Shown one piece after another: positions 16,559-32,819 of a stretch of DNA of 33,688 nucleotides; within the stretch, counting starts at the first letter, position 1; each line of letters opens with the position of its first letter. The DNA is from Candidatus Woesearchaeota archaeon (GTDB lineage: Archaea; Nanobdellota; Nanobdellia; Woesearchaeales; ARS49), in NCBI GenBank assembly GCA_018303245.1, contig JAGVYM010000010.1:1-33688 (forward strand), given 5' to 3'. The position numbers and the translations under genes were made by a program. The notes beneath the pieces are model-generated. The model did no database searches. It was not told the origin of the DNA and saw only the letters and a program-made list of their open reading frames with translations.

Positions 16559-17472
16559 AGGTCGTGTTACTCATTTTGTTGCTTTCCACACTGGTTGTCG
16601 CTGCGTCTTCAGAGGATGCCCGAGAGGCGTATTTGAACGCGACGGTGCACGTCGAGCAGATGAAACGGGCAGGTTTTCCGCACGGTTTGATGGATGGCTT
16701 GCTTCAGGATATGGAAATCGCGCTCAAAGGTAAGAATGCGTCAAAACTACTCCAGACTGCTTTGATTCTCAACCAGACAGAAGAGGGAATACTGAGAGCG
16801 CAGGAATATTTTGCAGAGCTTGAGTCTGCCCGTTTGCAGGGTTTGCAGCCTGGCCAGAATTTCTCAATGGTCATCCACTATGCGCAACTGATTGCGTACA
16901 AGCGCGAGCAAGCTTTTGAGGCTCGTGATGAACTTAAGAGAGTGGAGGAGATTATCGCAGGAGCAGAGAATATCAATCTGTCGCGGGTGAATGAACTGTT
17001 GCAGGAGGCGCAGGATTCATTTGCGAGTGAGAAGTACGAGCTGATTCCTGGCTTGGTGAACCAGACTGAGGTCGCGTTGGAAGACGCAAAAGTTGCCGCT
17101 GCGCGTAACCGTGCTCTTGCCCGCCTTGCCCGTCGTAATCTGTTGAGTTTTGTCGAGGATAATTGGTTGAGCGTGCTTGTTGTGTTGTTGATTTTTTCCG
17201 TGCTTGGCCTCTGGGGATTTGTGGAGGGCAGGGTTTTTTATGCCGCGAAAAAGGTGCGAGTGCTGGAAAGCGAGCTTGCCGCCGCGCATGAGGGGCTGTT
17301 GCAGGCGCAGAAAGAGTATTACTCTGGAGAAAGTGGAAGGTCGACCTATGGAGCGCGGACCGAAAAGGTGCATGAGAAACAGCGAGCAATTAGCAGCCAG
17401 CTCCACGCCTGGCGTGAACTGCATGCCAAATACTTGAAGACGGCCGTTATCGCGCGATTCAGGCCAAAGTGA
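16555..17472 (+). CDS. signal-peptide plus C-terminal-TM anchored helical protein, partner of the giant protein
   Basis: ATGA start/stop overlap with the giant gene, with GAGGT 8 nt upstream. Signal peptide MKVVLLILLLSTLVVAASS. TM helix WLSVLVVLLIFSVLGLWGFV. The cytoplasmic tail carries the same Q-E-x-Y-[FY] motif as the giant protein. Confidence 0.75.
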   Translation: MKVVLLILLLSTLVVAASSEDAREAYLNATVHVEQMKRAGFPHGLMDGLLQDMEIALKGKNASKLLQTALILNQTEEGILRAQEYFAELESARLQGLQPGQNFSMVIHYAQLIAYKREQAFEARDELKRVEEIIAGAENINLSRVNELLQEAQDSFASEKYELIPGLVNQTEVALEDAKVAAARNRALARLARRNLLSFVEDNWLSVLVVLLIFSVLGLWGFVEGRVFYAAKKVRVLESELAAAHEGLLQAQKEYYSGESGRSTYGARTEKVHEKQRAISSQLHAWRELHAKYLKTAVIARFRPK

Positions 17473-18334
17473 AGACTTCTTGCTCAGGGTAGACGACGAT
17501 TCCTTGTCCCGTCTTGATTTGGAAAGGAACGATTTTTTTCTTGAAGCCGCTTCCGCGCATCTTGAGGATTTCAAACGCGCTTTCACGCACGTTTCCCTGT
17601 CGCAGGTTGTAGAAGATGAATACTCCGTCCGCGAGGAATTCTTCTGAGCCTGAACTGCTGAGCTTAACTCCAGGATCGTTCGATTCGGAGATAAGGAATG
17701 TCGTTGCCCCTATTTCCTTGAAAATGTTGAATAGTTGTTCGATATAGATTCGGTAGGATTCTTCTTTGCCGTATAGTGCCGAGGCGACTGCGGAGAGCGA
17801 GTCGATGGCGACGCGGTCGGGCTTGTAATCGGAAGGGATAACCATTGGGCGGATGTCGATGAGAAGTTCTCCTTTGATGCGTTCCATCATGGCGTCTATT
17901 TGGCGAGTGATGTCCATGGGTGTGAATTTGCGTATCATGAAGTGTCCACTTTTTTCAAGGGGGGCTATGTCCCAGCCAAAATCTTTCATGTGTTTGCGCA
18001 ATGTTTCCGGTGTTTCTTCAAGGGTTATGTAGAAGACGCGTTCTCCCGCTTTCGCGGCGTGATAGAGTGTTTGGAGACAGAAGATGGTTTTTCCGCTTCC
18101 TGGTCCCCCGATGGTGAGGATAGAACTTCCGCGGGGGATTCCGTTCATGAAAAGTTCATCAAGTCCCACCACTCCTGTTCCAACATACTCTTGTCCGCTG
18201 ATGGGAATCTTGCGGTGAGGTTGGGCTTCTTGGAGTTTTTGTTGGATATGTTCTTTTATTTTTGCCGCGTCAATGAGTGGCCTGTGGATTTCAGTAGGGG
18301 ATGTTGTTTGAGCGGGAACCTCTTTTTTTGGCAT
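17459..18334 (-). CDS. single-domain KaiC-like (RecA-superfamily) ATPase
   Basis: GLDELFMNGIPRGSSILTIGGPGSGKT (Walker A), YITLEE (catalytic Glu pair), RVAIDSLS (Walker B), FLADGVFIF. The 3' end overlaps the convergent gene by 14 nt. Confidence 0.9.
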   Translation of the reverse strand: MPKKEVPAQTTSPTEIHRPLIDAAKIKEHIQQKLQEAQPHRKIPISGQEYVGTGVVGLDELFMNGIPRGSSILTIGGPGSGKTIFCLQTLYHAAKAGERVFYITLEETPETLRKHMKDFGWDIAPLEKSGHFMIRKFTPMDITRQIDAMMERIKGELLIDIRPMVIPSDYKPDRVAIDSLSAVASALYGKEESYRIYIEQLFNIFKEIGATTFLISESNDPGVKLSSSGSEEFLADGVFIFYNLRQGNVRESAFEILKMRGSGFKKKIVPFQIKTGQGIVVYPEQEVFTLA

Positions 18335-18357
18335 ATTATGTAATGGATGGTTTGTTG

Positions 18358-18423
18358 TTTAAAAAGTTAACTTTGAGTTTGCTGGTAAGTTGTTCCTCAC
18401 AAAGAGTGATAAATGTATATAAA
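18358..18423. promoter_or_regulatory. divergent promoter region (two TATA boxes)
   Basis: The minus-strand TTTTTAAA (18358-18365) lies 23 nt from KaiC-like ATG 18334. The plus-strand TATATAAA (18416-18423) lies 22 nt from ATG 18446. Confidence 0.45.
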
Positions 18424-18445
18424 CATGGTTGGCGGAAAGGGTCAC

Positions 18446-19216
18446 ATGCGTGCATCAGGATGGCTGGTCAGTGTCGGCGTGGTTGTTTTTGTGGTTCAGG
18501 CAATCGTGGTGCTCACCCAGCAGCAGAATGCGTTCCTGGCAGGGGATGGGTTGTCGGTCGTGCTTGCTCTTGCCGCTGCGCTAGGCTGTCTTGTAGTCTG
18601 GAAAAAGCTGCAGCACGCATTTTACTTGGAAAAAAAAGGCTGGCTTTTGACCAGTCTTGCGTTCTTCTTGTTTGCGTTTGGTGACGGAATTTGGGCGTAT
18701 TATGAATTTTTTCATCTTTCACAGCTTCCTGTATTTCTTGTCCCGCAGATTTTTTGGACGCTGGCGTACGTGTTTTGGATTTTTGGCCTCAAACAGTTTT
18801 TGGAGACGAGGTTCTTTCCTTCCCGTGCTCCTGTGATAGGCGTAATGGCTGCTTCCCTTGGACTCGCGGTTCTGCACGCGTACAAACCATTCCTGCAGTT
18901 GATACATGACGGTCGTTTGCTGATTTTTCTGAACAGTTTGTATGTGTCATATGATTACATCTTGCTTGGCCTCGTGGTGCTTATTATCGCTCCGTTTATT
19001 GTGCACCACACGCGCCTTTTAACAACCTGGGTGTTGCTGAGCCTTGCGATTGTGGCGAGGATTTTGTTTGATTTCATTTTGGTGAACTCGCACGCGTACT
19101 GGTCTGGCCACCCCGCGATATTACTGTATAGCGGGGCTTATGTACTGTGTCTGCTTGCCGCCCATGCAAAGCTTGGAATTTTCCAAGACGTGGTGAGGAA
19201 ATGGTTGTATCATTGA
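18446..19216 (+). CDS. polytopic membrane protein (about 7 TM)
   Basis: The track ORF starts at ATG 18413. I prefer ATG 18446 because a TATA box sits at 18416-18423, which would give a leaderless transcript. The sequence is hydrophobic throughout. The stop overlaps the next gene by 16 nt. Confidence 0.65.
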   Translation: MRASGWLVSVGVVVFVVQAIVVLTQQQNAFLAGDGLSVVLALAAALGCLVVWKKLQHAFYLEKKGWLLTSLAFFLFAFGDGIWAYYEFFHLSQLPVFLVPQIFWTLAYVFWIFGLKQFLETRFFPSRAPVIGVMAASLGLAVLHAYKPFLQLIHDGRLLIFLNSLYVSYDYILLGLVVLIIAPFIVHHTRLLTTWVLLSLAIVARILFDFILVNSHAYWSGHPAILLYSGAYVLCLLAAHAKLGIFQDVVRKWLYH

Positions 19217-19680
19217 TTATCACGCGCGGTGAGAAGACGACCGATGCGTTTTTGACGCAGCTGCAAAAGGTGAGCGGCGAGATCGGGATTTGTGTCCTAC
19301 TGATGCGAAAGTATGATGAAATGGTGCGTCTTCTTGCAAAAAAGAACATCAAGAGCGATGGTTTTTTGTTTGTGGATGGTTGTTCCTCTCCTGACGAAAC
19401 AAACATGATTCACACGTCGCTTGATAACCTTACGTTGATGAGCATCACAATAAATGAGGCAATCCAGGCCTTGCCTAAGGAACGGCGTTTTGTCGCGTTT
19501 GATGCGTTCGGTACGCTTGCGCTCTATAACGCCCCGCGTGTCGTGGCGAAGTTCGCGTTTTTCCTCAACCAGCAGGTGCGCGAGCTGGGTATGGATTGTG
19601 TCTGGATTGTCGCGCGTGAAGGTCTTGACCCAGAGTTGCTCGCGACTCTCAAGCAGTGTGCGGACGTGATTGAGGGATGA
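19201..19680 (+). CDS. P-loop-less KaiC-like domain protein (DUF835-like), copy 1
   Basis: Start at ATG 19201, preceded by GGTGAGGA. GICVLLMRKYDEMVRLL.., RRFVAFDAFGTL (Walker-B-like), GMDCVWIVAREG and CADVIEG align block-for-block with the KaiC-like genes of this window. No GxxGxGKT is present. Confidence 0.65.
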   Translation: MVVSLIITRGEKTTDAFLTQLQKVSGEIGICVLLMRKYDEMVRLLAKKNIKSDGFLFVDGCSSPDETNMIHTSLDNLTLMSITINEAIQALPKERRFVAFDAFGTLALYNAPRVVAKFAFFLNQQVRELGMDCVWIVAREGLDPELLATLKQCADVIEG

Positions 19681-19689
19681 CGCACTACA

Positions 19690-19732: not shown

Positions 19733-20095
19733 ATGCCCGAGTTGATTTATGTTCTCACTGACGCACTTGTTGTCCTTGGACTGGCAATCGCGCTCGTGTT
19801 GTATTACATCCAGCGCAAAAGGCTTTCTCCGGGACTGCTCAGGGAGATTTTTAACTGGCTTGCCGGATGCCTGTTCTTTCTTGTGTTGTTCATGGTGATT
19901 GCCAATGCGTCAGAGCTTGGTCGTTTGACACATCCGTTGATGACTGATGTGTTGCATGCTCTTGCGTTGCTTGTCGCCTTGTGCGCGCTTCGTTCTGCCT
20001 TGCTGTTTGTCCAGTTTGCGCATAAGTATGGTTTTCATCAAAAACTCTTCCAGTTTGTCCGCGTCCGTCATCACTCTATCAGGAATCAGAGGTAG
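19733..20095 (+). CDS. small polytopic membrane protein (3-4 TM)
   Basis: Internal ATG 19733 is chosen because of the TATA box plus RBS; the track starts the ORF at 19670. Hydrophobic segments include LVVLGLAIALVLYYI, LAGCLFFLVLFMVIA and LHALALLVALCAL. Confidence 0.6.
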   Translation: MPELIYVLTDALVVLGLAIALVLYYIQRKRLSPGLLREIFNWLAGCLFFLVLFMVIANASELGRLTHPLMTDVLHALALLVALCALRSALLFVQFAHKYGFHQKLFQFVRVRHHSIRNQR

Positions 20096-20097
20096 GC

Positions 20098-20583
20098 ATG
20101 CCGGTAAAGGTTCGACTGACGCGAAGCGGGAAAATCTTTGAAGTGTTTATTTCGACATTGCAGAAATACAAGGAAGCGATAGGAATTTGCGTGCTCGTCA
20201 CACGGCCATACCAGACGTTTGTCCGGACCATGCAGGATAAAGGGCTTGATGTTCAGAAGATGTTTGTGCTTGACCTCTGTGGTTACGCGGATGCTTCGAA
20301 TGTGGTGTGTGTTGCTCCTGCTGATTTGACCTTGCTTAATCTTGCGGTTGAAGACATCGTCGCTGAGCTTCCGCCTCAACGAAAATTTTTGGTGTTTGAA
20401 TCGTTCAGCAGGCTTACAGTCTACAATCCGCCAAAGCTTGTGGCAAAGTTTGCCATTGCGTTTTTCAAGCACCTGCGTGCCCTGGACGTCGAGTGTTCTA
20501 TCATCGTCGCTCAAGATGGTCTTGATGCCGAGCTCTTGGCAGCGTTGAAACAAGCGGCTGATGTCATTGAGTATGTTGAGTGA
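20098..20583 (+). CDS. P-loop-less KaiC-like domain protein (DUF835-like), copy 2
   Basis: Starts 2 nt after the upstream stop, with GAGGT as RBS. ICVLVTRPYQTFVRTMQDKGLDV, KFLVFESFSRL, VECSIIVAQDG and AADVIEYV are paralogous to 19201..19680 and align with KaiC-like core blocks. No Walker A. Confidence 0.7.
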   Translation: MPVKVRLTRSGKIFEVFISTLQKYKEAIGICVLVTRPYQTFVRTMQDKGLDVQKMFVLDLCGYADASNVVCVAPADLTLLNLAVEDIVAELPPQRKFLVFESFSRLTVYNPPKLVAKFAIAFFKHLRALDVECSIIVAQDGLDAELLAALKQAADVIEYVE

Positions 20584-20865: not shown

Positions 20866-21972
20866 TTAACTCATCGTGCCTTCAATCGAGTCACGCCAGG
20901 CGTCAAAGTCTTCAGTGGTGATGAAGATGTGTGGCGGCAGATCCACGATGCGTGGGTCAACCGGAGTGTTTTTGACACCCCAACGCTCATAGGTCGAGGA
21001 GATGGTATAACTCTCGCGATCAAGCAAGGTTCCGTCTGCAGCAAGTTTATCGATGACTACGGGCAGCTCGTGCGAGTCGAAATAAAACTTGATCTTGGCA
21101 CCTGCATGCTCCGCGTGCAGATAGGTGTTCTCGCCATCTTTTACAATACGTTGTTCGCTGCTCTCTTTGCTGGTGAACGTGAGAGACAAGATGGAGATAA
21201 GTTTTCCCGCAGGAAGATTGATTGATTGGTCGCTTGTATCAACTTCAAGGGGAGTCTCGCTTGCGTAGTTTGCAAATGTATCAAGGGGGCTTTTCACATA
21301 ATAGGGCAGGATGAGCTTGAGGATATTGCCTGCGCTGATCCCTCCTGCGCGGTAATATTGTTGTTGGAAGTATTTGAGGAATTCAATAGGTATCAGGGAC
21401 GCGTCTTGTTTTTTGTCTCCAGTGAGGTGGAGCTTGATAATTCCTGCAGGATAGAGCGAGGCTCCCAAGCTGCCCATGCGTTTTGTGGTGGACATTTTTT
21501 GGTTCTTGTACGTGTCCCACCAGTGTGCGGAGACGTCTCCGACCCAGACATTGAGCGTGGTGTCCATTGTGTCCCAGTAGAGAAGTCCGGGAGCAGCAAA
21601 GGGCCATTCGCCGGTGCTTCGTTTGGTTCCAGATGCGTAGACGATGTGTGCTCCGTCGGAGTAGACATAGTTTGTGGGCGCTTTTTCAAGGAGTGATTGT
21701 GCGAGTTTTTTGATCGGAGGAAGAGGTGCAGGTGTTTGTTCGATTGGGGTTTCGATAACCGCGGGCATCTCAATCGCAGAGTCTATGGTGGGTGCTAGCT
21801 GTAGTGCTTCCGCGCGCTTTTCTGGTGCCGGGCAATCTGTAGGGAATTCGGCGAAGCTTCCGTCGCTGCACTGGACTGCGAACACGACTGCTCCGGTCAG
21901 GGGGGATTGGTTTTGACATGCTGCTAGTGTGAGCAGGAGAATGGTTAATGTGCACAACGCGATGGTTCGCAT
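20866..21972 (-). CDS. secreted lipoprotein-like protein
   Basis: Start is set to ATG 21972, with AGAGGTGA 5 nt upstream; the track uses GTG 22029. MRTIALCTLTILLLTLAAC is a signal peptide with a lipobox-like LAAC. The mature part has no recognised family. Confidence 0.7.
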   Translation of the reverse strand: MRTIALCTLTILLLTLAACQNQSPLTGAVVFAVQCSDGSFAEFPTDCPAPEKRAEALQLAPTIDSAIEMPAVIETPIEQTPAPLPPIKKLAQSLLEKAPTNYVYSDGAHIVYASGTKRSTGEWPFAAPGLLYWDTMDTTLNVWVGDVSAHWWDTYKNQKMSTTKRMGSLGASLYPAGIIKLHLTGDKKQDASLIPIEFLKYFQQQYYRAGGISAGNILKLILPYYVKSPLDTFANYASETPLEVDTSDQSINLPAGKLISILSLTFTSKESSEQRIVKDGENTYLHAEHAGAKIKFYFDSHELPVVIDKLAADGTLLDRESYTISSTYERWGVKNTPVDPRIVDLPPHIFITTEDFDAWRDSIEGTMS

Positions 21973-22161
21973 AAAGTTCACCTCTTTTTTTATTTTGCAA
22001 AACAAGACGCAAAACAATTTTTTTGGCACGCCTCGGTTTGTTGAGACTGTTACTCTAAATTAGTATATAAAAGTAATGTATTACTATACGAATTAGTGAT
22101 TTTTGTATACTGGCTGATTGGTGATTTTTCTCACAGAGTGAGCGGAAAGAAGGTAGCTTAT

Positions 22162-23832
22162 TTATTTAGAGAGGTTGTGGCCGCGGTGGCTGTCAACCAT
22201 TAAGAAGAGGTGGTTTGCTTTGTATTTGAACTCGTCGGCAGCGACTCTTGTGAGGATTCCTTTTTTCTTCAACTCATCGATATAGCTTAGAATCTGGTCG
22301 CGGCTCAAGCTTTCTTGCCGTAAATCTTCGAACTCGCTCGCTCCGATCGGTCCCAAAAGTTCGGAGAAAAGCTCTGCGAGTTTTTTCTCGATTTGGTCTT
22401 TGGTTGAGAAGAGCACTCTGATTGGTTTTATTTCTTTGACAGGTTTTAAGGGCAGGGTAAAAAAGAAAGTGGTTCCTTTTCCGACAGCGCTTTCAAGCCA
22501 GATTTTTCCGTTCTGTGAAAGCACAATTCCTCTGCATATTGCAAGCCCAAGTCCGTTTCCTCCATTTCCTCGGTACATAGTTTGCTCTGCCTGGAAGAAT
22601 GGCTCGAAAAGTTTGAGTTGGTCTTTGGGCGAGATTCCGACTCCTTGGTCTTTGACGCTGAAACGGATGAAGTCCCGCTCGAGTTGTGCGGTGACAAGGA
22701 CAGTTGTTTTTTCTTTTGAGAACTTGACTGCGTTGCTTAAGAGGTTGCGTAGGACTTGGGTGAGTCGGTCAGGATCTGTTTCAATGATGGGAAGCTTGCC
22801 GAATTTTTCAGTTATTATGATGTGTTTCTTAGGCATGAACCCTTGCATGTACGAGATGACTTCGCGCGCGGTTTTTGCCACATCGGTTTTTTTGAAGTTG
22901 AATTTGAGGCGCGCCGCTTCGATGCGCGAGATTTCAAGGAAGTCAGCTATTATGGTGTCGAGTCGGTCTGCGTTTCGCATGATGACTTGAAGGCCGTCTT
23001 TTTGTTTCTTGTTGAGCTTGCCATAGTATCCCTGTTCGAGCATTTGGAGCTGTGCTTTCATGGGCGTCATGGGGCTGCGAAGTTCGTGTGACGTGATGCT
23101 TAAGAATCGTGTTTTTGCCTGATCGATTTGTTTACGTTCCTCGTCGAGTTTACTTAATGCCTCGGTTGCCGTGTCGAACACGGTTCCGAGTTCTTGGAGT
23201 TCGTCGTTGGTCTGGATGTTTGCTTTTGCCTTGAAGTTTCCTTCGGAGAGCTGGTGGGCGGCGGTGTAGAGCTGCTTTATCGGCTGGGTGAGGAGTTGGG
23301 TTGAGTGGTACGCGGCTGCGAGTGCTATGGCTGCGCTCGCCAAGACGAATATGATGATAGTAACAAGTCCCTTCGGCAGATAGTTATAGGAGGTAGGAGG
23401 GGAGATGAGGCCCATGCGCAGGGTTCCTTTCGTTCCAACAGGATAGGCAATATCGTGGATGGTGCCTTCGGGAGTTTGGAGCATGAGTGTGTTTGTGGCA
23501 TGTTCGAGCGAAGGACCGTTCGCATGGATGATTTCTGGAGAGACGGGTTGTGCTTGGGCTACTACTCCGCGCGCATTTGTGATGAAAACGTATGCGATTG
23601 ACGGGTCGCTTTTTTTGAGTGTTGTGAGTTGTGCTTGGGCTTCGAGAAGGTTGTGGCTTGAGAGCGCGGGGAGTGTCTTTTGTACGGCTTGAAGTGCAAG
23701 GGCGTTTCCGCGGGCATGCATTTCCTCGGTGCGGATGTCGGCGAACGTTTTCCAGGAGATTGATACTGCGGTAAGTGCGAGAAAAAGAATGATTCCTACG
23801 CTAATCAAGGTGAATTTGGTGCGTAAGTGCAT
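22162..23832 (-). CDS. membrane sensor histidine kinase (2 TM, extracellular loop, HAMP, HisKA, HATPase_c) with an extra ~85-aa C-terminal extension
   Basis: HAMP: PIKQLYTAAHQLSEGNFKAKANIQTNDELQELGTVFD. H box: SHELRSPMTP. N box: LLSNAVKFS. G boxes: DQGVGI and GNGLGLAI. Start is set to ATG 23832 on the basis of a TATA box and GAGG; the track ORF begins at 23910. Confidence 0.9.
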   Translation of the reverse strand: MHLRTKFTLISVGIILFLALTAVSISWKTFADIRTEEMHARGNALALQAVQKTLPALSSHNLLEAQAQLTTLKKSDPSIAYVFITNARGVVAQAQPVSPEIIHANGPSLEHATNTLMLQTPEGTIHDIAYPVGTKGTLRMGLISPPTSYNYLPKGLVTIIIFVLASAAIALAAAYHSTQLLTQPIKQLYTAAHQLSEGNFKAKANIQTNDELQELGTVFDTATEALSKLDEERKQIDQAKTRFLSITSHELRSPMTPMKAQLQMLEQGYYGKLNKKQKDGLQVIMRNADRLDTIIADFLEISRIEAARLKFNFKKTDVAKTAREVISYMQGFMPKKHIIITEKFGKLPIIETDPDRLTQVLRNLLSNAVKFSKEKTTVLVTAQLERDFIRFSVKDQGVGISPKDQLKLFEPFFQAEQTMYRGNGGNGLGLAICRGIVLSQNGKIWLESAVGKGTTFFFTLPLKPVKEIKPIRVLFSTKDQIEKKLAELFSELLGPIGASEFEDLRQESLSRDQILSYIDELKKKGILTRVAADEFKYKANHLFLMVDSHRGHNLSK

Positions 23833-23867
23833 ATGTTCCTCTTTTAGTGCAGAATATCGAAGGAGAG

Positions 23868-23876
23868 TATTTAAAG
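23868..23876 (-). promoter_or_regulatory. TATA box for the histidine kinase
   Basis: The minus-strand CTTTAAATA lies 35 nt upstream of ATG 23832, with AAGAGGAAC just before the ATG. Confidence 0.45.
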
Positions 23877-23899
23877 TCTTTGGAGAAGGTAAGCGTGGT

Positions 23900-24418
23900 C
23901 TACTTCTCAATCACGATTGTTTTCTCGACGTACATGCAGCAACGGGGAATGAATTTTTCTTGTTCGTTGAGCGCGTAGAAGACTGCTTTTGTTTTGGTCT
24001 CGCGGATTTTGTTGAGCAGCACAAAGATGAGGTCTTCAACGCCTTCTGTTTCTTTGTAGCTAAACAGGTTGGTTAGCGAGTCGAAGACAAGGTAATCGTA
24101 TTCTTGCTGGATGATGGTGTGGAGCGCAGCGAACGCGTCTGAGATGGACGTAGGGCTTACGAAGTAGCATTCTTTTGGGATGTCTTTTGCTTCTTTGAGC
24201 GAGCGGGTTATGGCGTCGACAAACAGGATGTTGTCAGTCTTGATTTTGTTTTTTTTGAATAGTTCCTTCAAGGCCCCGTATGTCTTGTTCAAGGTGACAT
24301 AGCAGACGCGTTTGTCGCTTAATGTCTTTATGGTTTCAAGAACGATTTTATTATACTCGATGCCAGGCATGAGTAAAAGGATGGTCTGATTGTCGGAGAG
24401 TTCTTTGATGATGTCCAT
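23900..24418 (-). CDS. P-loop-less KaiC-like domain protein (DUF835-like), copy 3
   Basis: RVCYVTLNKTYGALKELFKKNKI, DYLVFDSLTNL (Walker-B-like) and TKAVFYALNEQE follow the KaiC-like block order. No Walker A. It starts 2 nt after the CheY gene. Confidence 0.6.
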   Translation of the reverse strand: MDIIKELSDNQTILLLMPGIEYNKIVLETIKTLSDKRVCYVTLNKTYGALKELFKKNKIKTDNILFVDAITRSLKEAKDIPKECYFVSPTSISDAFAALHTIIQQEYDYLVFDSLTNLFSYKETEGVEDLIFVLLNKIRETKTKAVFYALNEQEKFIPRCCMYVEKTIVIEK

Positions 24419-25317: not shown

Positions 25318-25799
25318 GGTGACCTCCTAATCGTGCATTCAAGGACAGAGCCGCTGATTTTAACAGTGCAGTCCATGTTGGTTTTGAATAGGAATGAGAA
25401 CATTCCAGCTAAGGCCGCGCAAGGTAGGATTCCATGTTCTGGACCAAGTTTAACTGATGGGTTCCGTAGTGGGCAGTCCCTGATTTTGATGGATGCTGTT
25501 TTTTTTGAGTTGTCAAGCGCGTTGATTTCGGGTTTTCCTAATCCGAATGTTTCAAAAATTTCCTCAAGGACTTTGAGCAAACCCTCGCTAGTGGACCCGA
25601 CTTTTTTCGCGTAGTCTTCCATGCTGGAGTTGATTGTTTTTTTCACAAGGGTGTAGGACTTTTTTGGATCAACGCTTTGCAGCGCGACGAGTACTTCTGC
25701 CGGTAGCATAACTTGTTTCTTTCCGAGAATCTCTATCTTTCCGTCCGAAAGATCGAGTTGGCGTGCGAAAAGAAGTTTTTTGAGGAACGGTGAAAGCAT
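25314..25799 (-). CDS. V4R (4-vinyl-reductase-like) small-ligand-binding domain protein
   Basis: The N-terminal LLFARQLDLSDGKIEILGKKQVMLP hairpin and the Cys-bearing core CPLRNP...GILPCAALAGMFSFLF...C resemble V4R/XylR-N-type proteins (COG1719-like). Assignment by eye. Confidence 0.65.
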   Translation of the reverse strand: MLSPFLKKLLFARQLDLSDGKIEILGKKQVMLPAEVLVALQSVDPKKSYTLVKKTINSSMEDYAKKVGSTSEGLLKVLEEIFETFGLGKPEINALDNSKKTASIKIRDCPLRNPSVKLGPEHGILPCAALAGMFSFLFKTNMDCTVKISGSVLECTIRRSP

Positions 25800-25900: not shown

Positions 25901-26001
25901 CGAAACAATTAAGGACTCACGTCGAAGGTATGAGGTGATGCCAAAACGCCGGTTAGTTGCTTGTGGCGGATTCTCTCCTGTTCGTCAAAAGAGGTAAGAC
26001 T

Positions 26002-27303
26002 ATGAATAAGCAGAATCTTGTTGTCGGAATTGGATGTTCTAAAAACAAAGACGGTTACGTTGCCGCGTGCGATGCCGCCGGGCAGGCGCTCAAACAGCTT
26101 GGAGGCAAAAAGCCAACAATCTCTTTTGTGTTTTACGCAGGAGAATACAATCCTAAATCGCTTAACAAAGGGTTTCTTAACGTTCTCGGGAAGACTGAAT
26201 TTGTCGGTGGATCAACTGATGCAGTCATTTACAAGACTGAAATCATTCCTGTGGGTGTTGTTGTCTGCTCGTGGTATTCGGAGTATTTGCACGTTGGTGT
26301 TGCATCTTCTGATAATGTGCGCAAGAATCCGTATGCTATTGCCAAGAAAACAGTGCTTGATGCAGTTCACAAGATTTCAGTGGATAAATATCTCGATTCG
26401 TATATGCAGTTTGCCCGCATGAAAAAGGAAGACTTGGCTAGTCTGACAAGGATTCCGTCTTTTTTCACGTTCTTGTTCACTCGTGGATATGAGCAGAACA
26501 GGATGGGGAATGAAGATATCATCATCGAGGGGACCGCGGATGCGATCGGACATTATATCCCTATTTTTGGAGGATCGCTTGGTAATAATATGGACAAAGT
26601 TTTCAGAGGCGAGCCGTACGAGATTTATACGTTCCATTCAGGAAAAATCTACAAGGACGGTCTTGCAGCAGTATTTGCATATTCAGGTCTTGTGTACAGC
26701 AATTCAATCGCGCACGGCGGCGAGCCCATGGGGAAGCTTGGCTACATTTCGAAAGTGAAGGGTGGTGGTTTTGTCGTTTCAGAAGTTTGTGACAAGCCCA
26801 TAAAGCAGTGGTATGCCGAGACGTTAGGAGTGCCGCTTAAGAAGTTCGTGAAAAATATTCTTTTTTACACGCAGAAATATCCTCTTGGATTCCCTGATGG
26901 GTACGGTAACATTGTTATGCGCGCAGGTGGTGTTCCATTTGGCAATGATCTTTCCTACATTGCACCGTTCAGGGAGAATACTCCGGTCTGGGTGATGAAT
27001 ATTGAGGCTAACAAGCTTATTGTGAAGGCGCCGGAACAGATTAAGAAGGACATCAAGCAGCATCTTGGCAAGGCTCTCACGCCGCTGCACACGTTTGTCG
27101 TATCCTGTTCATCGCGGCGCAGGATTCTTGATTCGAAGAGCTCGAAGAAAGAGCTTCAGACAATCGCGAAGATGTCAAAGTTACCCCTTGTTGGGTTTTG
27201 CAGTTTTGGCGAGATAGGTTCCCGTCCTGCTGAGACGTGTCATTACAATCATCTCTGTACGAATCTGTTCAATTTATACAATGAAATCCTGCCGGATCTC
27301 TAG
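26002..27303 (+). CDS. FIST-domain sensor protein (FIST_N plus FIST_C)
   Basis: Start at ATG 26002; the track uses TTG 25957. SFVFYAGEY...FVGGSTDAVIY is FIST_N-like. PLVGFCSFGEIGSRPAETCHYNHLCTNL matches the FIST_C ending (GfytyGEi....fHNqT). Confidence 0.8.
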   Translation: MNKQNLVVGIGCSKNKDGYVAACDAAGQALKQLGGKKPTISFVFYAGEYNPKSLNKGFLNVLGKTEFVGGSTDAVIYKTEIIPVGVVVCSWYSEYLHVGVASSDNVRKNPYAIAKKTVLDAVHKISVDKYLDSYMQFARMKKEDLASLTRIPSFFTFLFTRGYEQNRMGNEDIIIEGTADAIGHYIPIFGGSLGNNMDKVFRGEPYEIYTFHSGKIYKDGLAAVFAYSGLVYSNSIAHGGEPMGKLGYISKVKGGGFVVSEVCDKPIKQWYAETLGVPLKKFVKNILFYTQKYPLGFPDGYGNIVMRAGGVPFGNDLSYIAPFRENTPVWVMNIEANKLIVKAPEQIKKDIKQHLGKALTPLHTFVVSCSSRRRILDSKSSKKELQTIAKMSKLPLVGFCSFGEIGSRPAETCHYNHLCTNLFNLYNEILPDL

Positions 27304-27308: not shown

Positions 27309-28583
27309 ATGATGCAAGAGACTGCTTTTGGAGAATTGCATGCCGATGAGCAGTTGGTGCACGATTTCGAAATGCAAAGGGCGCGCGATGAAGTGCGTCT
27401 TCGCGAGATTCTTGATTCATATCCTGACAAGAATAATATAGACCCTGACACGCTTCCGTCTGAAACTTGGGGCTTGCTTGCCTGGGAATTCATGGACCTT
27501 GGTTTGAGGGATCGGATACTTGCAGGGATGTTTCGTCATTCGCTTGCCCGCGCGAAAAAAGCGATGCCGATTTATGAACAATCGCTTGCGTACGTTGATG
27601 TTTGTCCTGAGCTTTTTGAGTCGATGGAACAGCTTGTGCAGATTCCTGTTCTGGTAAAAGATGGCCTTCATGGCTTTCGGCAGAAAGTGCGGTCAAATCC
27701 TTCGCTGTTGCGTCCAACTGATAAAGCTGTCCTGATGACGCCGTATCTTTCCGGGGGGACCGGGATTGATAACCAGACTGTTGGTAAATCTACACCGACG
27801 TGGATTAGTGAGCGCGATCTGGAAAGAGAGAGTCTTGCGCTTGCGTTCCGCTGTTTTCTTCCGGGTGGTTTTTCAAAAGCGATGAAGTTTATGAATTTTT
27901 ACAATCTCGCACACAAGGGGGGCGAGGAAATCAAGCGTGCAATCAACCATTTGGGTGCGCAGGTTTTCCTGCCGCGCAGGCCCGAGGATAGCGTTGAACA
28001 GTGCCTTGAATATATGGACCTCTTTGGCATCACCGCGCTTGCGGCTGTTCCTCAGTCCCCTCGTGATAAGAAAGGAGCTCCTAAAGGAGGTGCAGTTTCA
28101 TTCGACGATCTTTATGCTCGTAAGGCTGAGCTGTTCGGAAGCAAAGGAACAGTCAAGAGCGCGTTTGTGACCGGGTTTGCCATTCCTGAAAGTGTAATCA
28201 ATCTTGCGCAGCGAAATTCGCTCAATCTTTTTTCAACGTGGGGCGCAAGCGAAGCGATTCCTGGTGCAACATCGACAGTTCTTGGCCCGCCTACTCGTAT
28301 TTGTAAATACAATAATCAGCATCTGCTGTATTTTCCCCATTATCTTGCAGTAATGGATTTGACGGGTGCGCAGCCACGTTTCTGCCAGCCAGGTGAGGAA
28401 GGATTGCTTCTTGTGACAACAATTGCTCGTGATGGGACATTGTTCATAAACTATGCCATTGGGGACAGGGCAACAGTAATCTCCAATCACTGTGAGTGTG
28501 GAAGGACAACACCAGTGATAGGCAAAATCCGTCGTGAGGATAACCCTGGTGAACTCTCAAGTGGAGGATGCAGGTACGCATGA
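27309..28583 (+). CDS. PaaK / coenzyme-F390-synthetase / LuxE-like adenylate-forming enzyme lacking the C-terminal subdomain
   Basis: IPVLVKDGL is a ligase N-terminal motif. TPYLSGGTGIDNQTVGKSTP is a P-loop SSGTTGKPT with an insertion. GLLLVTTIARDGTLFINYAIGDRATVISNHCECGRTTPVIGKIRRED matches GELVxTxL...PxIRYRxGD...CxCGR...GRxDD. The ORF ends 12 aa later. Confidence 0.75.
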   Translation: MMQETAFGELHADEQLVHDFEMQRARDEVRLREILDSYPDKNNIDPDTLPSETWGLLAWEFMDLGLRDRILAGMFRHSLARAKKAMPIYEQSLAYVDVCPELFESMEQLVQIPVLVKDGLHGFRQKVRSNPSLLRPTDKAVLMTPYLSGGTGIDNQTVGKSTPTWISERDLERESLALAFRCFLPGGFSKAMKFMNFYNLAHKGGEEIKRAINHLGAQVFLPRRPEDSVEQCLEYMDLFGITALAAVPQSPRDKKGAPKGGAVSFDDLYARKAELFGSKGTVKSAFVTGFAIPESVINLAQRNSLNLFSTWGASEAIPGATSTVLGPPTRICKYNNQHLLYFPHYLAVMDLTGAQPRFCQPGEEGLLLVTTIARDGTLFINYAIGDRATVISNHCECGRTTPVIGKIRREDNPGELSSGGCRYA

Positions 28584-30031
28584 CAATCCGCATCACGAAT
28601 TTCGTGGGCGGCAAGTTCCATGATTCATTGGATGGAGCATTTAGTGTTTCAAGTCCGTTCTTTGATTACGCGGTTGACGTTCCCAATTCGTGTGTTCTGG
28701 ATTTAGGTGACGCGTTTTCAGTCGCAAAAAAAGCGCAAGTGGCATGTGCGAGCCTGTCTTTTGAGGCGCGTCGTGAAATTCTCAAAAAAGCTGCAGAACG
28801 ATTCATCATTTCTGATGAGGAGCTGGCACATTTGGTCAAGATGCAGGGCATGCCTATCCGGTTTGTGAAACAGCACGCCATGTATTCGCGTGAGTTGTTT
28901 TTTCATACTGCGAATGCGGCAGAGCGTAGGCATGGTCATGCTTTGGGCCACCTTGGGGAAAGCATGGACGTGCACGGCTTTGAGCTTAGCCTTCCTCCAG
29001 AGGGGATTGCCGTTGCGTTCATTCCGCCCAATGACCCTGCGGAGGCCGCGTTTGTCCTTTCGCATGTTGTGATGAGTGGCGCAGTGATTATCATAAAGCC
29101 AAGCCAGCAGGAGCCTTATATGGCGTTGAAAATTGCAAGCTTGTTGACTGAGTGCGGGTATCCTCCAGGCGGAATCAATGTTGTTCATTGGAATACTGCG
29201 GATGCAACCCGTTCAGAGTTGACACATTTTTTACTGCGTGATTCAAAATATCGTATTTTTATGGGAGATTATGATAGTGCGCATACAATGTTTGCTTCTG
29301 TGGAGAACAGGAACGCAAAGAACTGTATTTTTTCCGCAGGAAAATCAAAAGCGATTGTGGATGATGGGGCAGATCTTGAGCGCACGGCAGAGAGCATCAT
29401 TGAGTCATCTCTTTATTGGACTAATAATTGTGTTTCGACGAAATCAGTCATCGTTGTGGGGGAACAGAATGCCAAGCGATTGAGTGAAATTCTGGAGCGC
29501 AAGTTCAGGGATTTTATGGTTGGAGATCCGTTTAATCCTGACACGACAATAGGGTATGTTGATGAGAAAACACTCGATGAGCTTGAGCAGGTAGCAAGAG
29601 GGCAGAATGATTTTTCTTATGCTCACTTCCACCATAATTTTGTAAGGGTTAATAAGTTTCAAATGAATCCGCTTCTTGTTTGGCTACCGCATCCTGATGC
29701 CGAGTCGCCATTTGTTTCACATGAGTTTCCATACACCCTTGCAGTTATGTCAGTCCCAACGTTTGAGGACGCAGTGCATTTTGTCAATGAGGCGAGTGGT
29801 TTTCTGCTTGAGAAAAAGTCAATGGCGGTTTCGTTGTATGCAACTGAAGCTTCATTTACTGACTTCGCAAAGAGCAATCCCGGAAAACTTAAAAGCATTA
29901 TTGGGCTAAAGTCCCATTTGCTGTTTTACAACAAGCCATCGACGTGCCTCTCGCCTCATTTGAGGCATCAGGGGACTGATCTTACTGGTTTTTTATCGCG
30001 GCCTATGACGATTGTTGATTCAAAAATCTGA
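28568..30031 (+). CDS. aldehyde-dehydrogenase-superfamily protein of the CoA-acylating / acyl-CoA-reductase (EutE/PduP/LuxC-like) type
   Basis: IIIKPSQQEP, INVVHW and IFMGDYDS are cofactor motifs. FSAGKSKAIVDDGADLERTAESII replaces the ELGGK motif, as in G(A)GNPPxVVDETAD. WTNNCVSTKSVIV carries the catalytic Cys in an NNxC..(E/T)K context. An alternative start at ATG 28580 forms an ATGA overlap with the ligase stop. Confidence 0.75.
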   Translation: MQVRMTIRITNFVGGKFHDSLDGAFSVSSPFFDYAVDVPNSCVLDLGDAFSVAKKAQVACASLSFEARREILKKAAERFIISDEELAHLVKMQGMPIRFVKQHAMYSRELFFHTANAAERRHGHALGHLGESMDVHGFELSLPPEGIAVAFIPPNDPAEAAFVLSHVVMSGAVIIIKPSQQEPYMALKIASLLTECGYPPGGINVVHWNTADATRSELTHFLLRDSKYRIFMGDYDSAHTMFASVENRNAKNCIFSAGKSKAIVDDGADLERTAESIIESSLYWTNNCVSTKSVIVVGEQNAKRLSEILERKFRDFMVGDPFNPDTTIGYVDEKTLDELEQVARGQNDFSYAHFHHNFVRVNKFQMNPLLVWLPHPDAESPFVSHEFPYTLAVMSVPTFEDAVHFVNEASGFLLEKKSMAVSLYATEASFTDFAKSNPGKLKSIIGLKSHLLFYNKPSTCLSPHLRHQGTDLTGFLSRPMTIVDSKI

Positions 30032-30071
30032 AGTTGTACAAGTCTAAAGTGAATAATAAAAAGAAAGGTTT

Positions 30072-30800
30072 CTACTTAAGAACAATCATCCCCTTGTCCG
30101 CAATTTTCATGGGAATGGGATCGCGTCGGTGATTGGTTCGTCGCATTTTTACGACACGAATCGCGCGGTCTGCTTCGCCGCCAAGGCCTGCGCTGTGGAG
30201 GGTGATGACTGAGTCCGCGACAAATTCTAGGAGGCCTTCCCGGCTCAAATTTCCTCCTCCTGATGTAACATCGAGCGGGGGTTCGCCGTCCAGTTCAGCA
30301 GTCATTACAACGGTGCAGTCAAGTTCTTTCAGGAAACGCGAGAGCTTGTAAAGTTCTGTGCGCAGCTGGAACGTGTCCCCTTTGAACGACATCGAGAAGA
30401 TTGACACCGAGTCGATTACCACTCGCTTGATGGCGTATTTGGAAATCAAGGTTGCCATTTCTTTCTGCATGTTCGGGCTTTCATAGGGCTTGAATGAGAG
30501 GAAGAAGCATTGTCGTTTTTTCTCGAATTGGTCGAAATCCCAGCCAAACATGCTTGCATCTGCTTTTAGAGACTCCACATTTTCATCAAAGGTAACGACA
30601 AGGCCGGGCTCGTTGTTAAGCGCTCCGTTGTAGATGTATTGGAGGCCAAAAATTGTTTTGCCTGAACCTGGGCCGCCCGATATCATGATGAGTGAGTTTT
30701 TCACAAATCCGCCTTCGATTGCAGGGTCGAATCCAGGTATGTTGGTCTTGATTCGTTGAAGGTTGTATTTTTTGGAGGGCTGTTTGGTTTGTTTTTTCAT
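30072..30800 (-). CDS. single-domain KaiC-like ATPase (second of adjacent pair)
   Basis: IPGFDPAIEGGFVKNSLIMISGGPGSGKT, VVTFDEN, RVVIDSVS and FVADSVITL. Confidence 0.9.
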   Translation of the reverse strand: MKKQTKQPSKKYNLQRIKTNIPGFDPAIEGGFVKNSLIMISGGPGSGKTIFGLQYIYNGALNNEPGLVVTFDENVESLKADASMFGWDFDQFEKKRQCFFLSFKPYESPNMQKEMATLISKYAIKRVVIDSVSIFSMSFKGDTFQLRTELYKLSRFLKELDCTVVMTAELDGEPPLDVTSGGGNLSREGLLEFVADSVITLHSAGLGGEADRAIRVVKMRRTNHRRDPIPMKIADKGMIVLK

Positions 30801-30802
30801 GG

Positions 30803-31567
30803 TTACTCCTTGGTGTCGTGTACGGTGATTCCATTGCTAGCAATTTCAAAACCGTGAACGCCGCTGTCGCTTTTTGTTCCTCTCATCTTTCGCACGAGCA
30901 GTGAGCGGGAAGTCTGCCAGGCATTGATTTCAAAGGTCATAAGGATAATTCCATCCGCGATAAACTCTGAAACGGTGTCTCTTGACAAAAATTCTCCTTT
31001 TTCAGGTGCTTCAGATGTTACCATGCTTGTGCAGCCCATCTGTTTGATGTCGTACAAGAATCCGTAGACGAATCTTTTGACGACGAAGTCTCCAAGAATT
31101 GGAGGAGAAAAGAATGCTTTGTAGTTCATGATGTCGCGCAGCGCGATGTCTTTGATTGGCGTGTAGACTGGCGCATTGACCGAAAGTGTTGAAAGTGAGT
31201 CGATGACGAGCCGTTGGATTTTTCGTTCTTTGACTTCTTTTTTGATGAGTTCGATGGTTTGTGTTGTCAAGTCATGGATTGGGACATGCATGAGCGTGAG
31301 CATTCCTGTTTTTTCAAGTTTTTTTAAGTCAAGCCCGATTTGCATCGCCTGTTCGCGCAAGTCATCAAGGCTTTGTTCAAGGGTAACATACATGCATTTC
31401 TCTTTGAACTTTGAGGCGCCGTTGTACAGAAATTCAAGCGTGAAGAGGGTTTTTCCTGTTCCTGGTGTTCCGATGAGAAGAATTACTGCTCCTTGAGGAA
31501 GTCCTCCTTGGACGAGCTTGTCAAATCCTTTGATGCCAGTTGGTACTCGTTTGGGCACATGAATCAC
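30803..31567 (-). CDS. single-domain KaiC-like ATPase (first of adjacent pair)
   Basis: IKGFDKLVQGGLPQGAVILLIGTPGTGKT, YVTLEQS, RLVIDSLS and FIADGIILM. AGAGGTGA RBS. The stop lies 2 nt before the next KaiC-like start. Confidence 0.9.
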   Translation of the reverse strand: MIHVPKRVPTGIKGFDKLVQGGLPQGAVILLIGTPGTGKTLFTLEFLYNGASKFKEKCMYVTLEQSLDDLREQAMQIGLDLKKLEKTGMLTLMHVPIHDLTTQTIELIKKEVKERKIQRLVIDSLSTLSVNAPVYTPIKDIALRDIMNYKAFFSPPILGDFVVKRFVYGFLYDIKQMGCTSMVTSEAPEKGEFLSRDTVSEFIADGIILMTFEINAWQTSRSLLVRKMRGTKSDSGVHGFEIASNGITVHDTKE

Positions 31568-31604
31568 CTCTTTGGTACTACTCCGTTGTTTATCGTATTT
31601 ATAG

Positions 31605-32819
31605 TTATGCTTTGGGAGTTATCTCTATGCTGGCAGGCGGTCGCTCCGCTTCTTCTGTCACGTTTATCCACGAGCGGATGTCGTGTTCGAGTGTAAATAT
31701 TTCGCTTAAGTCCCGCATGAAAAAGACAAGCGCGTTGTCGACGAGTGTGAGATTCGCGACGACCATGATGTTGCTTCCGTCTTTGCAGTGGAGGGGGATG
31801 ACGAGGTCCTTGACGACCTGGTTTTTCTTGCAGGAGGTTATCGAGTCGAGGATTTTCTGTCGGACTTCTTTTTTGGGGAATATTTGAGAGAGTCCCTTGT
31901 CGCGGTCGTGCAGGTCTTTTTTCTGGTAGCCGGTGAGCTTGGTGAGCGTGTTGTTCGCAATGAGAACATGGTCATGTGTGTCAAAGGCAAGTACAGGGAC
32001 TCCTGCTTTCTCGATGAGTGCTTCAACGAAGTCTTTTTGTGAGCGAAGCTCGTCCTCTGTTTTTTTCAAAGGAGTGATGTTGCGCGAGAGGATAAGGATG
32101 CTGTTGATGCTTCCGTCATTGTTTTTGATGGGCGAGATGGTTTCAAGGCTCCAGAGGTGGCTTCCTTCTTTGTATCTTCCTTCGAACGTGGTCATTTTGC
32201 CGTGTTTTGCGGCGGCAAGCGCGCTTTTGAGTTTTGGCTTGTAGTCGTCCTGCAAAAAGCGGGCGAGTTGTTCTGCGTCGCAGGATTCTTTTGCACGGTA
32301 ATGTTTGATTGCACTTTCGTTCATGAAGATGGATTTTCCGCTGGTGTCAAGCAAGACGATGCAGTCAGGTGATGTTTGGGCGAGCACGCGGTAGCGTGCC
32401 TCGAGTTCTTTCTCGAGGTGTTCCGCGCGTTCTTTAGCTTCCAATGCTTCTCCTAGTTTGAGTTCTTCTTTTTTCAGTCCGACTTTCTCGACGGCAAGTT
32501 TGAGGCTTACTAGAATGCGGTCAAACGCTTTGGCGAGTTCGCCTATTTCATCAGTTCGTTCTTTTCCTTCGACGTGAATGTCGAGTTTTCCTTTGCTGAT
32601 GTCTTCGATGTTGCGCGTGAGCTTTTGGATAGGGTGGGTGATTGAGTACTCGGTCCGAAGCCCGATGGCGATAGCGGCAAGGAAGAGCAGGAAGACGATG
32701 GAGATTCCAGTCACCATGGTACTGTTGAGCGCGAAGAGTTTGAGTGCCGCTATGAATGCGAGTGCTCCAACGAGAAGGATGAAGAGCAGGCTGCCCGTGA
32801 GTTTTATTCCTATTTTCAC
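31605..32819 (-). CDS. membrane HAMP-PAS-PAS sensor without recognisable output domain
   Basis: GTG start with a GAGGT RBS. Two N-terminal TM helices. HAMP: HPIQKLTRNIEDISKGKLDIHVEGKERTDEIGELAKAFD. A coiled coil follows. PAS-like blocks begin at YRVLAQTSPDCIVLLDTSGKSIFMNESA and FVEALIEKAGVPVLAFDTHDHVLIANNT. Confidence 0.8.
   Translation of the reverse strand: MKIGIKLTGSLLFILLVGALAFIAALKLFALNSTMVTGISIVFLLFLAAIAIGLRTEYSITHPIQKLTRNIEDISKGKLDIHVEGKERTDEIGELAKAFDRILVSLKLAVEKVGLKKEELKLGEALEAKERAEHLEKELEARYRVLAQTSPDCIVLLDTSGKSIFMNESAIKHYRAKESCDAEQLARFLQDDYKPKLKSALAAAKHGKMTTFEGRYKEGSHLWSLETISPIKNNDGSINSILILSRNITPLKKTEDELRSQKDFVEALIEKAGVPVLAFDTHDHVLIANNTLTKLTGYQKKDLHDRDKGLSQIFPKKEVRQKILDSITSCKKNQVVKDLVIPLHCKDGSNIMVVANLTLVDNALVFFMRDLSEIFTLEHDIRSWINVTEEAERPPASIEITPKA

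Follow-up and report, generated by a model that had tools for sequence, protein, structure and literature searches.

KaiC-like ATPases and their inactivated homologues were reportedly proposed in 2017, by Makarova, Galperin, and Koonin, to act as signaling hubs in archaea. The inactivated KaiC (iKaiC) domains, represented by DUF835 (PF05763), MEDS (PF14417), and iKaiC-REC, are dead-site versions of the KaiC/RecA fold tied to receivers and to membrane or PAS sensors, and DUF835 is membrane-anchored. Fusions of the REC-DUF835(iKaiC), iKaiC-REC, and MEDS(iKaiC)-REC types, REC being the receiver domain, occur in Methanomicrobia, Thermoplasmata, and Thaumarchaeota (Galperin et al. 2018, PMC5847659). 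The principle itself, active KaiC hubs accompanied by inactivated KaiC domains that are linked to receivers and sensors, is already known. Here we analyze a stretch of 33,688 nucleotides of Candidatus Woesearchaeota DNA (contig JAGVYM010000010.1 of assembly GCA_018303245.1; hereafter the window) that contains a 15-kb signaling island with three catalytic KaiC-like ATPases (KaiC1–3) and three short KaiC-fold proteins lacking a P-loop (sK1–3). We lean toward the reading that the island is a conserved DPANN signaling supermodule in which the P-loop-less copies couple receivers and membrane sensors to the KaiC ATPases.

The island resembles the iKaiC systems in its dead-site fold tied to receivers and sensors, and members of the sK3 family give sub-threshold to moderate matches to DUF835 and KaiC. 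It differs from them in three respects. The sK proteins are minimal and stand alone (159–172 amino acids), being encoded beside a CheY or membrane-protein gene rather than fused to it; they form a large family of their own, seen in DPANN, with DUF7504 and DUF7090 as its best Pfam matches; and sK3 sits in a conserved triad of CheY, iKaiC, and histidine kinase (HK) genes. Compared with DUF835 receptors, the membrane part is here encoded by a separate, overlapping gene, an arrangement that is analogous to that class without belonging to it. KaiC1–3 are typical of the single-domain archaeal KaiC proteins (PH0284, PDB 2dr3; PH0186, 2zts; SSO2452, 2w0m), with PF06745 matches of about 1e-55, intact motifs, and an operon link to a sensor without an output domain (HAMP-PAS-PAS); they differ in an insertion of about 30 residues in KaiC3 and in the presence of three active and three dead copies within 15 kb. 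We know of no single-domain KaiC-like ATPase that has been experimentally characterized in DPANN. Rechecked on the open reading frames (ORFs), the gene content and coordinates of the island were as first described, and its central features are as follows.

19201..19680, plus strand: sK1, P-loop-less KaiC-fold protein of 159 residues, 40% identical to sK2, with weak DUF7504 and DUF835 matches
20098..20583, plus strand: sK2, P-loop-less KaiC-fold protein of 161 residues (AlphaFold and Foldseek), with no Walker A and no KMR
23900..24418, minus strand: sK3, P-loop-less KaiC-fold protein of 172 residues (AlphaFold and Foldseek), at the center of the CheY-iKaiC-HK operon
24421..24771, minus strand: CheY-like stand-alone receiver (PF00072, E 3e-19), ending 2 nt before sK3
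22162..23910, minus strand: membrane histidine kinase, HAMP-HisKA-HATPase_c (Pfam), start probably at 23832 (gene call of 556 residues)
18413..19216, plus strand: TM7, polytopic membrane protein of about 7–8 helices (hydropathy), a conserved family
19733..20095, plus strand: TM120, small membrane protein of 3–4 helices (hydropathy), 2 nt upstream of sK2
17459..18334, minus strand: KaiC1, single-domain KaiC-like ATPase (PF06745, E 1.3e-53) with GGPGSGKT, VAIDSL, and KMR
30072..30800, minus strand: KaiC2, single-domain KaiC-like ATPase (PF06745, E 2.9e-56), starting 2 nt after the end of KaiC3
30803..31567, minus strand: KaiC3, single-domain KaiC-like ATPase (PF06745, E 7.7e-56, matched in two stretches)
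31605..32819, minus strand: HAMP-PAS-PAS membrane sensor with no output domain (Pfam), upstream of KaiC3-KaiC2

Fold and lost active site of sK1–3

The relation of the short proteins to KaiC is not apparent from single sequences. BLAST comparison of sK2 with KaiC1 gave E 7.4, with no KaiC relation visible, and a small sK1/sK2 alignment compared with the three window KaiCs in hhalign reached a probability of 3%. In Pfam, KaiC (PF06745, gathering score 26.6 bits) matched sK3 at 15.1 bits and neither sK1 nor sK2; DUF7504 (PF24336, gathering score 27 bits) matched sK1 at 18.1 bits and sK3 at 17.6 bits and did not match sK2; and DUF835 (gathering score 33.1 bits) matched sK1 at 13.2 bits. When the sK3 family as a whole was compared with the three window KaiCs in hhalign, the match had E 8e-5 and ran through the same blocks in which the initial annotation had aligned the short proteins to the KaiC core. 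Pfam matches at E ≤ 0.01 among 39 representatives of this family were to DUF7504 (34/39), DUF7090 (31/39), KaiC (24/39, best E 1e-6), DUF835 (17/39), and Elongator Iki1 (10/39), all of them RecA/KaiC-type families. DUF7504 was the nearest Pfam family of the sK3 relatives (best E 5.4e-9), sK1–3 themselves staying below its threshold, and a search of the sK3 family against PDB sequence profiles returned FlaH as its sole match (E 0.13).

The short proteins had been described as three paralogues. This holds for sK1 and sK2, which are close (40% identity, E 2e-43); sK3 belongs to a separate subfamily with other genomic partners, and its pairwise match to sK1/sK2 is distant (E 0.061). A profile of the sK1/sK2 group from which sK3 had been excluded matched the sK3 family with a probability of 97.3% (E 2.4e-11) in a profile–profile comparison. 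The link of sK1 and sK2 to KaiC thus runs over this bridge through the sK3-family profile, together with structure.

AlphaFold modeled sK2 with a predicted local distance difference test score (pLDDT) of 95.4 and a predicted template-modeling score (pTM) of 0.90, and sK3 with a pLDDT of 86 and a pTM of 0.86. Foldseek placed PH0284, KaiC, FlaH, and PH0186 at the top of the PDB matches of the sK2 model, with Elp456 also among the matches, and PH0284, FlaH, and KaiC at the top for sK3. Overall, the PDB matches were PH0284, PH0186, and SSO2452, then FlaH, cyanobacterial KaiC, RadA/RecA, and Elp4/5/6. The top matches had E values of 1.6e-6 to 1e-4 and query-normalized TM-scores (template-modeling scores) of 0.7–0.74; the target-normalized score (TMt) was about 0.5, with about half of the target covered. 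Judged by these models, sK2 and sK3 are predicted members of the KaiC/RecA-like fold class, in agreement with the expectation in the initial annotation that the short ORFs would fold as RecA/KaiC-like domains, and the 40% identity of sK1 to sK2 assigns it the same predicted fold. ArlH/FlaH (PDB 4yds), a single-domain KaiC-like fold among the top structural matches of sK2 and sK3, binds ATP through its Walker A motif, whereas sK1–3 have none. Some members of the sK family are labeled FlaH by JGI; sK1–3 had no NCBIfam match, to ArlH or otherwise, and the Pfam matches of the window proteins scanned included no Arl/Fla family.

A pattern search for GxxGxGK[ST] found no Walker A motif in sK1–3, as had been noted of the short paralogues, nor in 269 of 272 relatives; in the other three the pattern sits in helix 1 and not at the P-loop position. 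In the sK2 and sK3 models the P-loop has been shortened away rather than just mutated, with strand 1 passing into helix 1 over one or two residues. The catalytic Glu-Glu position, which follows strand 2, is occupied by N-K in sK3, R-K in sK1, and R-P in sK2, in an aligned block that reads TLNKT, VTRPY, or LMRKY against TLEE/TFDE in KaiC. No KMR(G) segment was found in sK1–3, whose chains stop at the strand equivalent to 'ADGVI' and which thereby lack both the N-terminal segment and the entire C-terminal KMR(G) β-hairpin region of KaiC1–3. Because P-loop, catalytic glutamates, and KMR(G) segment are all lost, these pseudo-KaiCs are, on their sequences, predicted to be incapable of hydrolyzing ATP.

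The family is large. We detected 146 homologues of sK3 at E ≤ 0.01, the listed sources of which are DPANN. A word-index homology search with sK2 gave four proteins, and family size was taken instead from an exhaustive profile search, which returned 1985 clusters (at 50% identity) at E ≤ 1e-3 and 889 at E ≤ 1e-10. Among the motifs that vary hardly or not at all in the sK3 family are YVTLNKT and FDSLTN.

Genomic partners of the pseudo-KaiCs and the catalytic KaiCs

We assembled 40 DPANN loci encoding an sK3 relative, called their ORFs, and labeled these by the window proteins; many of the loci lie on contigs that end early, so that the presence of a downstream KaiC gene could not always be read. 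Of the 36 loci with upstream sequence, 31 have a CheY gene on the same strand no more than two genes ahead of the sK3-type gene, the gaps between CheY and the sK3-type gene being mostly −4 to +3 nt. An orthologous kinase follows within two genes in 26 of 35 loci, and 23 loci have both. Tandem (CheY-iKaiC)x2 units are present in L009, L015, L016, and L026, and two or three CheY genes stand ahead of one iKaiC gene in many loci, an arrangement that speaks for a paired function of CheY and iKaiC. From the conserved order and the orthology of the kinases, we conclude that CheY-iKaiC-HK is an orthologous triad widely conserved in DPANN. No description of this module was found in the literature searched, outside which Makarova et al. 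2017 falls. A HAMP-PAS gene is present in 16 of the 40 loci, at most six genes after the sK3-type gene and on the same strand in 13. Of the 40 loci, 12 have a Walker-A KaiC gene, which in 10 cases lies downstream of, and on the same strand as, CheY-iKaiC-HK; KaiC1 is the orthologue type found there most frequently.

Pfam bears out the HAMP histidine kinase and the CheY receiver that had been read at the window's own triad. Residues D9, D10, D53, S77, and K101 of the receiver are intact as read from the sequence, and HisKA (E 8.4e-16), HATPase_c (E 1e-29), and the H-box SHELRSP identify the kinase as a two-component protein. Its cytoplasmic part, including a C-terminal extension, is about 49–63% identical in about 28 DPANN loci, and its sensor part is variable, total length ranging from 429 to 1081 residues. 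The extension comprises about 90 unannotated residues after HATPase_c (window 22162–22440), for which Pfam gives sub-threshold winged-helix matches only; it could be a docking or a DNA-binding domain.

sK1 and sK2 each follow a membrane-protein gene. TM7 and sK1 share 16 nt, the end of the first gene running into the start of the second. Hydropathy agrees with the two polytopic membrane proteins of the initial annotation. Residues D91, W94, E98, D181, R216, and D220 are invariant in the TM7 family alignment, and TM7 had no Pfam family, with one stray sub-threshold match to Ceramidase. TM120 is represented by gene calls in L002 and is conserved in L001. Distant sK1-type genes (L048–L051 and L054–L056) always lie behind a homologous protein of 7–8 helices, with an overlap of 4 nt where gene calls exist (L048–L051).

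Other iKaiC genes lie beside KaiC itself. A third iKaiC subgroup of about 180–195 residues adjoins a Walker-A KaiC in L018, L021, and L048, and a PAS protein in L026. The order in L048, a distant DPANN locus, is TM7-iKaiC-TM-TM-TM-iKaiC-Hemerythrin-KaiC-giant surface protein, where TM denotes a small transmembrane protein and Hemerythrin-KaiC a fusion; this gene string lies at positions 7177–11576. In a module of this kind, O2 or iron may thus be sensed as an input to a KaiC ATPase. We also observed a relative of 456 residues (P0152) that joins a KaiB-like domain (E 4e-5, below cutoff), V4R (E 1.9e-9), and iKaiC (KaiC E 1e-6), and thus directly links a KaiB-like fold, V4R, and a pseudo-KaiC at the level of domains.

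The catalytic KaiCs have one KaiC domain each, in 242–291 residues, and belong to PF06745 (182–191 bits, against the gathering score of 26.6; E 1e-53 to 3e-56). With Walker A motifs GGPGSGKT or GTPGTGKT, Walker B motifs of the form hhhDS, and a C-terminal KMR, they are the three single-domain KaiC-like ATPases with Walker A/B that had been proposed. KaiC3 carries its insertion of about 30 residues after Walker B (residues ~130–160), relative to KaiC1 and KaiC2. The KaiC3-KaiC2 pair, 2 nt apart, could be the two-gene equivalent of a double-domain KaiC. Upstream of this pair, the sensor of 404 residues has HAMP at 59–106 and PAS at 151–249 and 264–360 in Pfam, which agrees with its earlier description as a HAMP-PAS-PAS sensor without an output domain, and the HAMP-PAS to KaiC3 pairing is kept in L008–L010. 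In gene context, the island is like the cyanobacterial KaiC-SasA/CikA-RpaA system in coupling a KaiC-family protein to a kinase and a response regulator, and the KaiB-like-V4R-iKaiC fusion P0152 of the sK family is a further likeness. KaiC1–3 are not bona fide circadian KaiC proteins: they have a single domain where circadian KaiC has two in tandem (about 500 residues), and the NCBIfam equivalog model PRK09302 scores them at 134–159 bits against a cutoff of 408. Neither KaiA nor KaiB families appeared among the Pfam matches of the 24 window proteins scanned.

Conservation of the island and its remaining genes

The remaining genes of the island, and the giant protein and p305 that adjoin it, are as follows.

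8033..16558, plus strand: giant secreted or surface protein of 2841 residues with a C-terminal membrane anchor and coiled-coil tail
16555..17472, plus strand: p305, with signal peptide, helical stalk, transmembrane helix, and coiled coil
20866..22029, minus strand: Lipo387, secreted and lipoprotein-like, no Pfam match; between kinase and KaiC1 in relatives
24865..25317, minus strand: p150, no Pfam or NCBIfam match; kept with the FIST operon in L056 (60% identity)
25314..25799, minus strand: p161; orthologue in L056 52% identical and directly upstream of FIST
25957..27303, plus strand: FIST_N + FIST_C sensor (Pfam, E 1.1e-16 and 8.3e-15), start probably at 26002
27309..28583, plus strand: divergent adenylate-forming enzyme, PaaK/coenzyme F390 synthetase-like (NCBIfam; PDB PaaK, E 0.0026)
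28568..30031, plus strand: aldehyde dehydrogenase (Aldh) or LuxC-like acyl-CoA reductase (Pfam Aldedh, E 1.7e-33; LuxC, E 5.5e-9)

Relatives keep the gene order or parts of it, so that it is not confined to this contig. In L001, where the sK2 orthologue is about 76% identical, the order giant protein-p305-KaiC1-TM7-sK1-TM120-sK2 is retained. An alignment scan of metagenomes returned six loci, of which L056 was the only long one; this diverged relative has essentially all island genes, although its TM7-sK pairs number one rather than two and p161/p150 are rearranged. Identities to L056 are 82% for KaiC2, 71% for CheY, 68% for KaiC1, 63% for the kinase, 60% for p150, 56% for sK3, 52% for p161, 47% for FIST, 45% for p305, 44% for the PaaK-like enzyme, 35% for TM7, 33% for Aldh, and 33–39% for sK. 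The Woesearchaeota loci L008–L010 read HAMP-PAS-KaiC3 ... CheY-iKaiC-HK-Lipo387-KaiC1-p305-giant protein without the TM7-sK insertion, and the run from CheY through iKaiC, HK, Lipo387, KaiC1, and p305 to the giant protein is contiguous in them.

Precomputed Pfam matches of the giant protein are CLIPPER and NPCBM_assoc; it is very rich in N-x-S/T sites and ends in a C-terminal transmembrane helix. Its homologues stand beside the module in L001, L008, L010, L023, L026, L028, and L056. p305 resembles the stalk, transmembrane helix, and coiled coil at the C terminus of the giant protein (BLASTP E 2e-4), its 3' end overlaps that of KaiC1 by 14 nt, and it adjoins the module in L008, L010, L023, L026, L031, L035, L036, and L056.

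Pfam FIST_N and FIST_C confirm the FIST protein of the initial annotation. The assignment of p161 as a V4R protein has to be withdrawn: V4R (PF02830) gave no Pfam match at E ≤ 10, a PDB profile search and an hhalign comparison with P0152 were negative, and what is discernible by eye is only a loose cysteine/glycine pattern. The FIST, PaaK-like, and Aldh/LuxC-like genes form a tight operon, kept together with p161 and p150 in L056; the NCBIfam matches of the PaaK-like enzyme (E 1.8e-11 and 4.6e-11) are both below cutoff. A small acyl or aldehyde compound may be what this unit produces or senses. No DNA-binding output was found in the island.

The same scaffold is contained in groundwater metagenomes from the Rifle aquifer, and homologues of the window proteins are almost all from DPANN (Woesearchaeota, Pacearchaeota, Nanoarchaeota, Iainarchaeum, and Undinarchaeota). 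G+C content is 47–50% at 8–33.7 kb against about 38% in the first 8 kb, in which two features were found.

1107–1181: tRNA-Glu, in the low-G+C first 8 kb of the window
1072–2385: integrase ORF of the phage-integrase family, followed by several ORFs without a Pfam match

Positions 1–8000, up to the giant surface-protein gene, look like a mobile element integrated at a tRNA gene. From 8000 to 33688, GC skew is positive throughout (0.02–0.27) and AT skew is zero to negative (+0.003 to −0.26), both independent of gene strand. Cumulative skew over the window dips early, near 3–5 kb, and rises monotonically afterward, a profile that suggests a single replichore for the whole window or else a strand-specific mutational bias.

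Proposed working of the island and its alternatives

In the mechanism we propose, the membrane histidine kinase would phosphorylate the stand-alone CheY receiver, whose effector partner would be the adjacent sK3. CheY and sK3 would then amount to a response regulator of the REC-iKaiC/DUF835 type split over two genes; the known REC-iKaiC fusions have their counterpart in the translational coupling of sK3 to CheY. In the same manner, the coupling of sK1-type genes to a membrane protein mirrors the membrane-anchored DUF835 architecture. TM7-sK1 and TM120-sK2 may each be a membrane protein with a P-loop-less KaiC-fold cytoplasmic partner, TM7 presumably binding sK1 to form a split DUF835-type membrane-anchored receptor. 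HAMP-PAS-PAS-KaiC3-KaiC2 and KaiC1 would supply sensor-coupled catalytic ATPases of the KaiC type. As docking modules, the pseudo-KaiCs would pass the state of receivers and membrane sensors to these ATPases, most likely through contacts between one KaiC fold and another, and the ATPase or phosphorylation state of KaiC would be the integrating output. The giant surface protein and p305 are likely linked to the circuit as candidate inputs or outputs.

The initial annotation had viewed the island as one integrated circuit. In favor of this, the order of CheY-iKaiC-HK, HAMP-PAS, and KaiC recurs in DPANN; several modules at the operon level fit the data better, and the island is better described as several operon-level units traveling together. 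Four observations weigh against the supermodule reading. A KaiC ATPase lies within 10 kb in about one-third of the sK3 loci (many contigs ending early), and sK3 may act without KaiC. Each of sK1–3 falls below every Pfam gathering threshold. L008–L010 lack p150, p161, and the unit of FIST, PaaK-like, and Aldh genes, so that not all parts of the island are obligatorily linked. Finally, the conserved polar residues N44, K45, T46, D68, D113, and S114 at the former nucleotide site of sK3 could serve ligand binding or phosphorylation rather than simple docking.

The last of these observations also speaks for a KaiC-independent role, in which sK3 acts as a regulator of the kinase and receiver themselves, for example by scaffolding them or as a phosphatase-like protein, a phospho-sink partner, or a small-ligand sensor, sK1 and sK2 are soluble domains of membrane sensors, and the KaiCs form a parallel pathway. 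Conservation of the CheY-sK3-HK core far exceeds that of any linkage to KaiC, and the conserved C-terminal extension of the kinase could dock sK3. Against this role, at least 10 loci of several DPANN lineages carry a Walker-A KaiC gene downstream and in the same orientation, KaiC and the kinase belong to one contiguous string of genes in L008–L010, and iKaiC-KaiC gene pairs exist. We regard this role as a serious but clearly less probable alternative.

We give about the same limited weight to the possibility that the sK proteins are decoy or poison subunits, as raised in the initial annotation, which enter KaiC1/2/3 hexamers and whose dead sites tune the ATPase stoichiometrically in the manner of Elp4/5/6 or the Rad51 paralogues. 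The two sK models resemble the KaiC/RecA core, Elp456 is one of the structures matched, Iki1/Elp5 is matched in Pfam by 10 of the 39 family members, an iKaiC adjoins a Walker-A KaiC in L018, L021, and L048, and the island has equal numbers (3 + 3) of dead and active copies. Elongator Elp4/5/6 and the Rad51 paralogues are RecA-fold rings with non-catalytic subunits; they belong to the RNA and DNA machinery of eukaryotes, outside any signaling context, and the similarity is one of fold only. The sK proteins, moreover, have neither the N-terminal segment nor the KMR(G) β-hairpin region of KaiC1–3, and with TMt at about 0.5 the ring interface is probably missing in part. Most sK3 loci show no KaiC nearby, and it is with CheY and membrane proteins, rather than with KaiC, that coupling is closest and best conserved. 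The context of the P-loop-less copies points first to CheY and membrane partners, not to KaiC hexamers.

That the short ORFs are decaying remnants of KaiC in a chance accumulation of signaling genes would fit the lack of significant pairwise similarity to KaiC and of any match above a Pfam threshold, yet it is effectively ruled out by the size of the family with its conserved length and motifs, the highly confident structure models, the synteny of the operon context in about 40 genomes, and the retention of the island in L056 at orthologue identities of 33% to 82%. We conclude that the sK proteins are conserved under purifying selection and are not decaying genes.

DPANN archaea mostly live attached to host cells. 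Under the supermodule reading, we raise more speculatively that the giant surface proteins and p305 report the state of the surface or of host contact, through the histidine kinase, CheY, and the P-loop-less KaiC adaptors, to the KaiC ATPases. This would be a dedicated and undescribed DPANN pathway in which pseudo-KaiCs bridge two-component signaling of the bacterial type and the archaeal KaiC network; we consider it possible, though improbable as a whole.

Within the literature scope given above, four elements appear to be undescribed: a stand-alone, minimal iKaiC family across DPANN, with subgroups; the CheY-iKaiC-HK triad with its kinase-specific C-terminal extension; the split pairs of membrane protein and iKaiC; and the link to homologous giant surface proteins. 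The locus and about 40 related DPANN loci make up a compact, conserved set of parts, namely the CheY-iKaiC-HK triad, the membrane protein with its iKaiC, the sensor with its KaiC, and (in about seven related loci) giant surface proteins, and with this set the archaeal KaiC hub hypothesis becomes directly testable. A further result is a large, uncharacterized protein family that comprises about 2,000 clusters (50% identity). Finally, the locus suggests that archaea with small genomes and dependence on a host have retained dedicated sensory circuitry, a point of relevance to how such archaea perceive the host.

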